Positions 25,176 to 26,603 of a stretch of DNA of 64,000 bases are shown here, piece after piece. The notes under the pieces are model-generated. The model had not been told where the DNA came from. It worked only from the letters and a program-made list of their open reading frames with translations, and did not search any database. The first letter of the stretch is position 1. Every line of letters begins with the position of its first letter. Origin of the DNA: Escherichia coli (lineage in GTDB: Bacteria > Pseudomonadota > Gammaproteobacteria > Enterobacterales > Enterobacteriaceae); assembly GCF_003018255.1 (NCBI RefSeq), contig NZ_CP027440.1; one strand, given 5' to 3'. Made by a program: the position numbers and the translations under genes.

Positions 25176-25739
25176 TCAGCGATGCAGGAAATTAGCCAGC
25201 AGTTGATGTCCTTGTTCGCTGAGAATACTTTCTGGATGGAACTGCACGCCTTCCAGATCCCACTGGCGATGGCGAATCCCCATAATCTCGCGGGTTTCGC
25301 TCCAGGCCGTCACTTCAAAGCACGCTGGTAATGAGTCAGGTTCCACCACCAGCGAATGGTAGCGTGTCACGGTAAGTGGATTTGCCAGCCCCCGAAATAC
25401 GCCCACACCGTTATGTATAATCGGCGAGGTTTTGCCGTGCATGACCTTTGCGGCGCGCACAACTTTGCCGCCAAATGCCTGCGCCATTGCCTGATGACCG
25501 AGGCAGACGCCAAGAATCGGCAAGCACCCGGCATAGTTGCGAATAACGTCAAGGGAGATCCCGGCTTCATCTGGCGTACAGGGTCCGGGTGAGATGACAA
25601 TTTTTTGTGGTTTAAGGGCGTCGATATCCGCCAGCGTCAACGCATCGTTGCGCTTAACCAGCACATCCGCCCCCAGTTCACAAAAGTACTGGTAGAGGTT
25701 CCAGGTAAAAGAATCGTAGTTATCAATAAGCAGGATCAT
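25176..25739 (-). CDS. pabA: Aminodeoxychorismate synthase glutamine amidotransferase subunit
   Basis: 187-aa [26 protein letters not shown]...; class I GATase with Cys-His. Confidence 0.96.
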
Positions 25740-25770: not shown

Positions 25771-26373
25771 TTACTCAGATTCCCCGGCTTCGCTTACCAC
25801 TTTGCTAAATATCATCTGCAGCGCGGTGAGATCCCCCATTGCCCCACTCTGATTTGCCTGATTCCAGGCCTCTTTTTCGATACCCTGCCAGCTCAGTTGG
25901 TAGCCCGCATGAATCGCCAGCTGCTCGAAGAAGATCCGCTGTGCCAGTCCGCTTCCCACACGGAAGGGATGCAGCACGTTGATTTCACAATAGTAATGCG
26001 CCAGCCGCTCGACGAACTTCGCTTTCTCCAGGCCAACCAGATAACCTTCTTCCTCCAGATCCTGCATCAGGGCATTGCCCTCTTTTTCGATATAAGCAAA
26101 GTGGCAGAACGGCGTATCACCCTGATAAATATCAACTTCACGCAGTTGCCCCGCCCAGTCGAAAATATCCTGATACAGCTGGCGATGGATAGTGCGCAAA
26201 TGCGGTAAACCGCGCACCAGCGGACCAAGCTCAATGGTCGCAGCACGTAGCGCCGTCATTTCGTAAGCGGCCTGTTCCAGCCGCTGTTGCTGGCGGATGT
26301 TCAGCCGGTTACGCATGATATCAAGGCCAGGATAAAGATACGGATCGCGCCCTTCGCCGAATTTATCGCTCAT
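25771..26373 (-). CDS. fic: Fic-domain protein
   Basis: 200-aa with [12 protein letters not shown] at residues 135-146; start ATG overlaps yhfG stop. Confidence 0.9.
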
Positions 26374-26530
26374 AGTGCCTCCTCAGCTCTTCAAGGCGCG
26401 CTAAAGCCTCTGCGGCAGTAAGAGTGACTAAAGGCATCTCGACGCCTTCAAGACGGCGACTGGCCTGGAAATTACGATTACGCTGAAGCTCCCAGAGACG
26501 GGACTTTTGCTTATCGGTGAGTTTCTTCAC
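26363..26530 (-). CDS. yhfG: Small protein YhfG (candidate Fic antitoxin-like partner)
   Basis: Absent from the ORF track: GTG start at 26528-26530, 55 codons ([55 protein letters not shown]), TAA at 26363-26365; overlaps fic start by 11 nt. Confidence 0.75.
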
Positions 26531-26603
26531 TTGATGCCTCCCTGAACGTGTCCATTTGCCACAAGTATAAGCGGCAAATCCGGGTTACGCCGGGAGAGCA
26601 GAA

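Follow-up and report, generated by a model that had tools for sequence, protein, structure and literature searches.

The open reading frame under study is the chromosomal fic gene of Escherichia coli, which encodes EcFicT, the founding Fic protein, and it lies next to the gene of its antitoxin-like partner YhfG/EcFicA (Table 1). The gene order across the window, i.e., the whole stretch of 64,000 nucleotides that was analysed (contig NZ_CP027440.1), is yhfK-argD-pabA-fic-yhfG-ppiA-tsgA-nirB on the E. coli chromosome. The fic product matches the Pfam Fic family (PF02661; E=1.5e-13, residues 58-152) and belongs to the Fic/DOC superfamily. The NCBIfam equivalog NF007672 (PRK10347, putative AMP-protein transferase Fic) was matched over residues 1-200 of 200 with a score of 430.3 bits (cut-off, 181). 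The VbhT and NmFic equivalogs of NCBIfam remained below their cut-offs for this protein, with scores of 138 vs 800 and 66 vs 230, respectively. Chain A of the solved structures PDB 5JFF and 5JFZ ("Probable adenosine monophosphate-protein transferase fic") is ~99% identical to the fic product (E about 1e-134), and the only differences from chain A of 5JFZ (E=3.6e-134) are S2G and R27H. The Fic protein of the window presents no amino acid differences from that of K-12 MG1655, and 13 synonymous and 0 non-synonymous differences separate the two genes. A region of 901 bp around fic, annotated fic/yhfG, is present in 5425 of the 5426 complete E. coli genomes, where it is almost always found on the chromosome and in a single copy. 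A natural disruption of fic was observed in NZ_LR882057. Finally, an Rfam scan at gathering thresholds and a tRNA scan of the whole window identified no RNA genes, and thus no RNA element associated with the fic locus.

Table 1. Features of the fic locus, with positions in the window.
Feature	Position	Strand	Basis or remark
pabA	25176..25739	-	Starts 31 nt downstream of fic, same strand; context, outside the module
fic (ecficT)	25771..26373	-	200-aa class I Fic toxin-like protein; ORF, Pfam Fic, NF007672, PDB 5JFF/5JFZ
Degenerate Fic signature motif	25936..25971	-	Residues 135-146 of the fic ORF; Val139 (D/E position), Ser141 (Asn position), Leu143 (first Arg, R1)
Codon of His135, retained general-base histidine, first of the motif	25969..25971	-	His kept in 122/122 EcFicT-like and 124/125 canonical homologues
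Codon of Gly55	26209..26211	-	Mutated in the classical fic-1 allele (G55R); wild type in the window
Overlap of yhfG stop and fic start, ATGAGCGATAA	26363..26373	-	11 nt; ORF coordinates and sequence
yhfG (ecficA)	26363..26530	-	55-aa FicA antitoxin, GTG start; ORF, PDB 5JFF chain B, NF007573
Inhibitory-helix motif SRRLEG (Ser24...Glu28-Gly29)	26444..26461	-	Fits [S/T]xxxE[G/N]; translation, YhfG residues 24-29
TATACT hexamer, candidate -10	26564..26569	-	34 nt upstream of the yhfG GTG

YhfG aligns to chain B of PDB 5JFF with E=3.9e-30 and also matches NCBIfam NF007573; the Pfam family PF10832 (YhfG) was found on yhfG orthologues. The protein differs from its K-12 counterpart at one residue (R51S). 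As in class I FicTA modules, the antitoxin is a small separate ORF located upstream of fic and contains the motif [S/T]xxxE[G/N]. This motif is retained as SR[RL]LEG in the antitoxins of Salmonella, Klebsiella, and Leclercia, and the same 11-nt overlap between yhfG and fic is found in these three genera. A Shine-Dalgarno-like run (GAGGAGG) is located just upstream of the overlap. Together, the overlap and this run suggest that yhfG and fic may be translationally coupled. The two proteins are about 98-99% identical to their counterparts (chains A and B) in the solved 5JFF/5JFZ complexes, and R146 is present. In these structures, EcFicA is wrapped around the FIC fold of EcFicT in a 1:1 complex with a salt bridge between Glu28 and Arg146 (PMC5033356).

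The sequences flanking the module offer some indications on its expression. TATACT is tabulated in PMC5650638, citing Utsumi 1993, as the -10 element of an RpoS-dependent fic promoter, and the hexamer found upstream of yhfG is, from its position, a candidate for this element. A GC-rich hairpin (GCGCGGGCAA-TC-TTGCCCGCGC) follows the stop codon of ppiA. Scanning the surroundings of the operon for promoter and terminator consensus sequences yielded counts near shuffle expectation.

The signature motif of EcFicT

A sequence-only reading of this DNA had claimed that the Fic signature presents Val at the acidic position, Ser at the Asn position, and Leu at the position of the first Arg. Reverse-complement translation of the motif reproduced all three residues exactly; the plus strand encodes an unrelated peptide and the frame of the motif is that of the minus strand. 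Relative to the complete signature HxFx[D/E]GNGRxxR, EcFicT therefore departs from the motif of canonical AMPylators at three positions, and the retained motif residues are His135, Phe137, Gly140, Gly142, and Arg146 (the second Arg, R2). An alignment with characterised Fic AMPylators had been proposed as a check, and comparing the motif with that of Pseudomonas Fic-1 (8WT0; HPFREGNGRAQR) confirmed that it is non-canonical.

The possibility of a sequencing error in this block of codons, which had also been raised, was ruled out. The same 12 residues are specified by the gene of K-12 MG1655 and by an E. coli allele that diverges by 6%, and synonymous differences among E. coli alleles fall in the codons of Arg138, Ser141, Gly142, and Leu143. 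The corresponding motifs of the orthologues are HPFRLGSGLAQR in Salmonella, HPFRLGNGMAQR in Klebsiella, and HPFRIGNGIAQR in Leclercia. The non-canonical residue classes are thus kept, through synonymous or conservative changes, in three E. coli alleles and in three other genera.

The degenerate motif and its interpretation were already published in 2016 for exactly this protein, and the observation is therefore correct but already known. Stanger, Harms, Dehio & Schirmer (PLoS One 2016) described the structures of EcFicT/EcFicA and called the motif "somewhat degenerated" (PMC5033356). In their work, auto- or target-AMPylation was undetectable for EcFicT, even with the E28G variant of EcFicA. 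The Leu at R1 was the change that "appears most relevant", given that R1 serves to bind ATP at its beta-phosphate, and the Mg2+-coordinating D/E was found to be replaced by a hydrophobic residue. Based on the structure, these authors argued that ATP is most likely unable to bind EcFicT and that the anion nest could still accommodate a diphosphate. They also described a hydrophobic groove that is conserved among EcFicT-like proteins, with A36, F71, and V139 as its lining and Y67 and T40 at its border, and which may hold "a yet unidentified substrate" (PMC5033356). Finally, they reported that the fic knock-out is viable and that fic-1 (G55R) acts as a gain of function (PMC5033356).

From three substitutions at nucleotide-binding positions, the sequence-only reading had further proposed that this Fic may not perform standard AMPylation and could bind a different substrate or act non-catalytically. 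The 2016 study concludes likewise (PMC5033356), and this part of the proposal stands. The number of disabling substitutions, however, was overestimated. The replacement of Asn by Ser was judged to be structurally tolerated, as either residue can form a hydrogen bond with the main chain of Phe137 and roughly half of those sequences that are EcFicT-like keep Asn (PMC5033356). Our own counts at position 141 of the EcFicT-like sequences were 46 Asn vs 75 Ser. Since Asn and Ser are structurally interchangeable, effectively two substitutions would be disabling rather than three.

Conservation and inheritance of the module

The canonical signature was found in none of the 120 best representatives of 90%-identity clusters, which are 79-100% identical to the query. 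Across these sequences, position 5 of the motif is V, L, I, or F, position 7 is S or N (C in one case), and position 9 is L, M, or I. We then considered 50%-identity representatives, for which an exhaustive HMMER search yielded 5205 homologues. A motif-like segment was present in 119 of the top representatives, and 112 of these carried the canonical motif. Six of the seven non-canonical sequences are close relatives of EcFicT or fragments of such relatives, and the remaining one (P0236) is a distant homologue of 511 aa with 36% identity and the motif HPFRRGNGLAIR. Three apparently motif-less sequences (P0125, P0127, and P0129) were left out, as they look error-ridden or frameshifted and are not likely to be true variants.

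A total of 248 homologues were aligned and split by the residue found at R1, which was hydrophobic in 122 sequences and Arg in 125. In the hydrophobic-R1 group, H135, F137, G140, G142, and R146 are each conserved in 122/122 sequences, and the pocket is characterized by A36 (117/122), T40 (121/122), Y67 (120/122), and F71 (120/122). The Arg-R1 group (n=125) presents E36 in 120 sequences, F67 in 122, Y71 in 113, E/D139 in 123, and N141 in 123. At the level of sequence, this alignment reproduces the specificity-determining positions of PMC5033356; the hydrophobic-R1 group corresponds approximately to a single clade, so that the co-variation represents one evolutionary event and not repeated independent evidence. 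The protein of the window carries A36, T40, Y67, and F71, which constitute the pocket of the EcFicT-like subgroup 3 of Stanger et al. 2016, and its residues L143 at R1 and V139 at the D/E position are the hydrophobic residues of the same subgroup.

The position of the locus is likewise that of subgroup 3. The synteny ppiA-yhfG-fic-pabA-argD is held in Salmonella, Klebsiella, and Leclercia, and vertical inheritance of the EcFicT-like locus between ppiA and pabA has been described for Enterobacteriaceae (PMC5033356). Comparing fic to its orthologues in these three genera, we estimated pN at 0.085-0.126 and pS at 0.65-0.70, with dN/dS of 0.05-0.09. For the same genera, dN/dS was 0.06-0.085 for the neighbouring gene pabA and 0.045-0.09 for yhfG; all these dN/dS values are approximate, as synonymous sites are saturated between genera (dS>1). 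A decaying gene or pseudogene can be ruled out from the similarity of the dN/dS of fic to that of pabA, from the 0 non-synonymous against 13 synonymous differences from K-12, and from the near-universal presence of the region in E. coli genomes.

We also considered whether the EcFicT clade represents a mobile or plasmid-borne toxin-antitoxin module, which was rejected based on the matches in a plasmid collection. The matches of at least 99% identity are mislabelled chromosome-sized records or an 11-kb piece of an E. coli chromosome of the K-12 type that is entered as a plasmid of Klebsiella oxytoca. Three Klebsiella records of the collection match at about 69-71% identity; one of them is chromosome-sized (5.4 Mb) and the two others are 0.69-0.79 Mb long. 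All other plasmid homologues are below 60% identity, and those of Acinetobacter plasmids, which lead this list, are at 48% or less. The model PDLC04838 of the PADLOC candidate system PDC-S04 matches at 250 bits; the gene itself is core, syntenic, and chromosomal. EcFicT is an Enterobacteriaceae-specific, vertically inherited offshoot of the class I FicT AMP-transferases.

Related Fic systems

The K-12 pair EcFicT/EcFicA (5JFF, 5JFZ; PMC5033356) presents the same genes, signature motif, antitoxin motif, and genomic position as the pair of the window. The differences amount to strain-level polymorphism, the PDB constructs carrying G2 and H27 where the window encodes S2 and R27. VbhT/VbhA of Bartonella schoenbuchensis (3SHG, 3ZC7, 3ZCB) likewise belongs to the class I FicTA modules. 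It shares the fold of EcFicT/EcFicA, and its antitoxin, a small protein encoded upstream, forms a Glu-R2 salt bridge; VbhT aligns to EcFicT over residues 5-185 with E=6e-33. In contrast to EcFicT, which has Val, Ser, and Leu at the three positions and for which AMPylation is undetected, VbhT carries the canonical HxFx[D/E]GNGRxxR and AMPylates gyrase and topo IV. VbhT-like modules also move horizontally, unlike the syntenic, vertically inherited EcFicT.

The closest solved canonical relative is Fic-1/AntF of Pseudomonas bijieensis 2P24 (8WT0; PMC13327609), which aligns over its full length with 170.9 bits. This complex resembles EcFicT/EcFicA in its architecture and in the Ser24 and Glu28 of the antitoxin, with an RMSD of 0.9 A to 5JFF (PMC13327609). 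Fic-1 differs from EcFicT by its canonical motif and by its activities, as it AMPylates GyrB at Tyr111 and deAMPylates as a complex (PMC13327609).

Other Fic proteins provide precedents for a change of function. In the kinase Doc and the phosphocholine transferase AnkX, changes in the motif and pocket redirect Fic chemistry to another donor or group. Their motifs and pockets differ from those of EcFicT, and the donors they use have been established (inverted ATP and CDP-choline, respectively). Neither of them is known to combine a hydrophobic R1 with a hydrophobic D/E position. The BepC-type Bartonella effectors (4WGJ) possess a homologous FIC domain (E=1.6e-13) with another residue at the D/E position, which is Lys in the case of 4WGJ. 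Unlike EcFicT, these proteins retain R1, carry a BID domain, and are type IV secretion effectors targeted to the host. Their mode of action is reportedly non-catalytic.

Possible functions of EcFicT

These results indicate that EcFicT is very probably not a canonical AMPylator. The residue that would hold the beta-phosphate of ATP (R1) is lost to Leu143 and the acidic Mg2+ ligand to Val139; with both gone, EcFicT would not be a conventional ATP-dependent AMPylator. The residues that are kept include the general base His135, the anion nest of Gly140 and Gly142, and Arg146 (R2). EcFicA would then be the off-switch, its Glu28 plugging Arg146 through the salt bridge, and the pocket appears to have been remodelled in a coordinated manner, with A36, T40, Y67, and F71 fixed. 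The conservation under purifying selection of the catalytic His, the anion nest, R2, and the active-site inhibitor, in combination with the remodelled pocket, makes it most economical to view EcFicT as a Fic protein that may still be catalytic but whose donor would no longer be Mg-ATP, gated by EcFicA. We give this scenario of a lineage-specific repurposed enzyme an even chance. The literature counts against it, as EcFicT has never been shown to be catalytically active or to have a donor substrate or a target, and a paper of June 2026 on Fic-1-AntF describes its biochemical mechanism as one that "remains elusive" (PMC13327609). Moreover, the conservation of His135 and Arg146 could stem from structural roles or from antitoxin binding instead of catalysis.

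Alternatively, EcFicT might be a pseudoenzyme in which the FIC fold was retained for binding or scaffolding without catalysis, for instance to sequester a target protein or a small ligand, and in which EcFicA modulates that binding. Two residues that bind phosphate and metal are lost in EcFicT, and years of literature since the discovery of the chemistry of the family have passed without enzymatic activity being assigned to it. Many conserved surface patches and clade-specific positions are found on the flap and the back face (PMC5033356), as might be expected of a binding module. A precedent would be BepC (PDB 4WGJ), whose non-canonical motif has a Lys in place of D/E. This effector recruits GEF-H1 and is not known to act through a modification. 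However, His135, Gly140, Gly142, and Arg146 are invariant in all 122 EcFicT-like sequences, whereas pseudoenzymes usually drift at positions of this kind, and EcFicA keeps the Ser24 and Glu28 that plug the active site, an inhibitor that is sensible mainly if there is an activity to inhibit. The invariant catalytic His and the Glu of the antitoxin would speak for a changed catalytic role more than for one that involves no catalysis at all, and we consider the pseudoenzyme unlikely. A residual AMPylation activity appears considerably less probable still. EcFicT would then continue to AMPylate type IIA topoisomerases, weakly or conditionally, with substitutions that reduce activity without abolishing it. 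In this direction, conservation extends to the adenine pocket and to the Asn that precedes the motif (PMC5033356), and fic-1 causes filamentation, a phenotype that is also given by gyrase-targeting FicT toxins. Two reviews further report that EcFicT inhibits the growth of E. coli or AMPylates gyrase/topo IV, but the primary authors' own statement contradicts them (PMC5033356), and our judgement of this conflict is drawn solely from that statement in the 2016 paper. Binding of ATP is improbable from the structure (PMC5033356) and Arg is found at R1 in 0 of the 122 EcFicT-like sequences, both of which argue against this possibility.

The comparison to Fic-1-AntF raises another alternative, namely that EcFicT-EcFicA is a dedicated deAMPylase-type hydrolase that clears AMP, or a similar group, from gyrase and topo IV after the action of incoming FicT toxins. 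Fic-1-AntF indeed deAMPylates its target in a manner dependent on Glu28 of AntF (PMC13327609), and EcFicA has the equivalent Ser24 and Glu28. R1 might be dispensable for such a reaction, given that an AMP-Tyr substrate has no beta- and gamma-phosphates, and a role of this kind would be in line with a complex that is very stable (Tm of 63 C) and a locus that is core and vertically inherited. The active site, in contrast, does not fit well. The acidic cleft that is reported to be essential in Fic-1 is formed by E29, E36, and E139 together with E28 of AntF (PMC13327609), and the positions of the first three are occupied by Q29, A36, and V139 in EcFicT, such that 3 of the 4 acidic residues are absent. 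In addition, deAMPylation by Fic-1-AntF requires a divalent metal, and the metal ligand of the motif is Val in EcFicT. We regard such a dedicated deAMPylase as improbable, to the same degree as the weak AMPylator.

Returning to EcFicT as a repurposed enzyme, we can only tentatively propose what it might do. Its clade could perform a chemistry that is new to Fic proteins, in which a partly hydrophobic phosphodiester donor other than a nucleoside triphosphate would be used on a stationary-phase target, or EcFicT-EcFicA could serve solely as an eraser of foreign FicT marks. This proposal appears rather doubtful, if somewhat less so than the pseudoenzyme. The adjacency of pabA and the old association of fic with PABA and folate would fit a novel phosphodiester-donor chemistry.

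The deviation of the motif was documented, structurally explained, and phylogenetically analysed in 2016, and its recovery here adds nothing new beyond a correct reading of the sequence. The idea of a different substrate is also present in the literature; only a specific chemistry would be new, if true. The residual interest lies in the function of EcFicT, which is beyond the reach of sequence analysis and for which the degenerate motif constitutes the main clue. EcFicT is the namesake of the Fic family, and the fic-1 mutant was described more than 40 years ago. A new chemistry or a role as an eraser, if true, would at last assign a function to the protein with which the family began.

Divergence of fic within E. 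coli

A fic allele with only 90-95% DNA identity to that of the window was found in 740 of the 5425 E. coli genomes. Its representative, carried by comparison contig L005, differs from the window gene at 38 of 603 nucleotides, and these differences lead to eight amino-acid changes, four of which (G110K, V113T, G114S, and A118D) cluster at residues 110-118. The neighboring ppiA and yhfG genes of this contig differ from those of the window by approximately 1% or less, and the Fic motif is the same in both alleles. This pattern looks like that of an imported or recombinant allele or, alternatively, of a surface patch that evolves rapidly at a local scale.

Features of the fic locus in the window and in the comparison records
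Feature	Record	Coordinates	Length	Description
fic (EcFicT)	NZ_CP027440.1 (window)	25771-26373 (-)		reference for comparison
Divergent fic allele	L005, NZ_CP019012.1	1501-2103		compared with window 25771-26373
Fused yhfG-fic ORF	L004, Logan ERR4228981 contig (2717 bp)	1011-1613	200 aa	in-frame fusion
YhfG-Fic fusion	P0001, Logan assembly		252 aa	read-through of the 11-nt overlap (...EELRVTMSDKF...)
YhfG-Fic fusion	P0005, Logan assembly		233 aa	internal in-frame deletion
Truncated fic	L007, NZ_LR882057.1	2997-3335		broiler isolate
K-12-type fic region	L008, NZ_CP069919.1		11338 bp	linear; 'Klebsiella oxytoca plasmid unnamed8'

Fusions of yhfG and fic and doubtful records

The interval between ppiA and pabA of the L004 contig holds a single ORF rather than separate yhfG and fic genes. 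A deletion of approximately 157 nt joins codons 1-29 of yhfG in frame with fic from about codon 33, and the inhibitory motif is disrupted at the fusion junction, where SSRLDI stands in place of SRRLEG. The Fic motif of the fused protein is HPFFVGSGRAQR: the arginine is retained at the position of the first Arg of the canonical motif, and the Val and Ser substitutions are already present. The fused Fic may therefore represent an intermediate or an antitoxin-less variant, although this fusion is known from one contig of one sample and could be an assembly artefact. Full YhfG-Fic fusions, with both PF10832 and PF02661 present, were also encountered among the homologues predicted from Logan assemblies. 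The read-through of P0001 is as would be produced by a frameshift in or near the 11-nt overlap; this fusion and that of P0005 probably reflect either rare variants or errors in the reads or assemblies.

The contig deposited as a Klebsiella oxytoca plasmid (L008) is a segment of E. coli K-12-type chromosome (nirD-nirB-tsgA-ppiA-yhfG-fic-pabA-argD-yhfK-crp), and its WP protein accessions are identical to those of K-12. Almost certainly, this record represents a contaminant contig and not a plasmid. The homologue P0129 (212 aa, 48% identity) has lost the catalytic His and presents pervasive C, F, L, V, W, and Y replacements throughout, as expected of heavily damaged or chemically converted reads and not of a genuine variant, and it was therefore left out of the motif statistics.

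Reported activity and defence-family match of EcFicT

Two reviews present EcFicT either as an enzyme that AMPylates gyrase/topo IV or as one that strongly inhibits growth (table of PMC8097203; section 4.2 of PMC10886550), both citing Harms et al. 2015. In contrast, the 2016 paper with Harms as co-author (PMC5033356) states that neither auto- nor target-adenylylation by EcFicT was demonstrable. It is probable that the claim made in the reviews is an error propagated through the secondary literature.

The EcFicT protein matches PADLOC PDC-S04, a candidate single-gene defence family (model PDLC04838, 250 bits). This match is at the level of the Fic family, and the core, syntenic location of fic in the window does not resemble that of a defence island. 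Across the whole 64-kb window (1-64000), Rfam gave no match at its gathering thresholds, and neither tRNA nor tmRNA genes were detected.

Natural disruption of fic

In the broiler isolate, an inserted element displaces yhfG and the N-terminal part of fic (about 88 codons), and the other half of the gene is located elsewhere in NZ_LR882057.1. The element encodes a large protein with a transposase domain, an HTH protein, and a DNA-binding protein. This genome is a natural fic knock-out, which is consistent with fic being dispensable.
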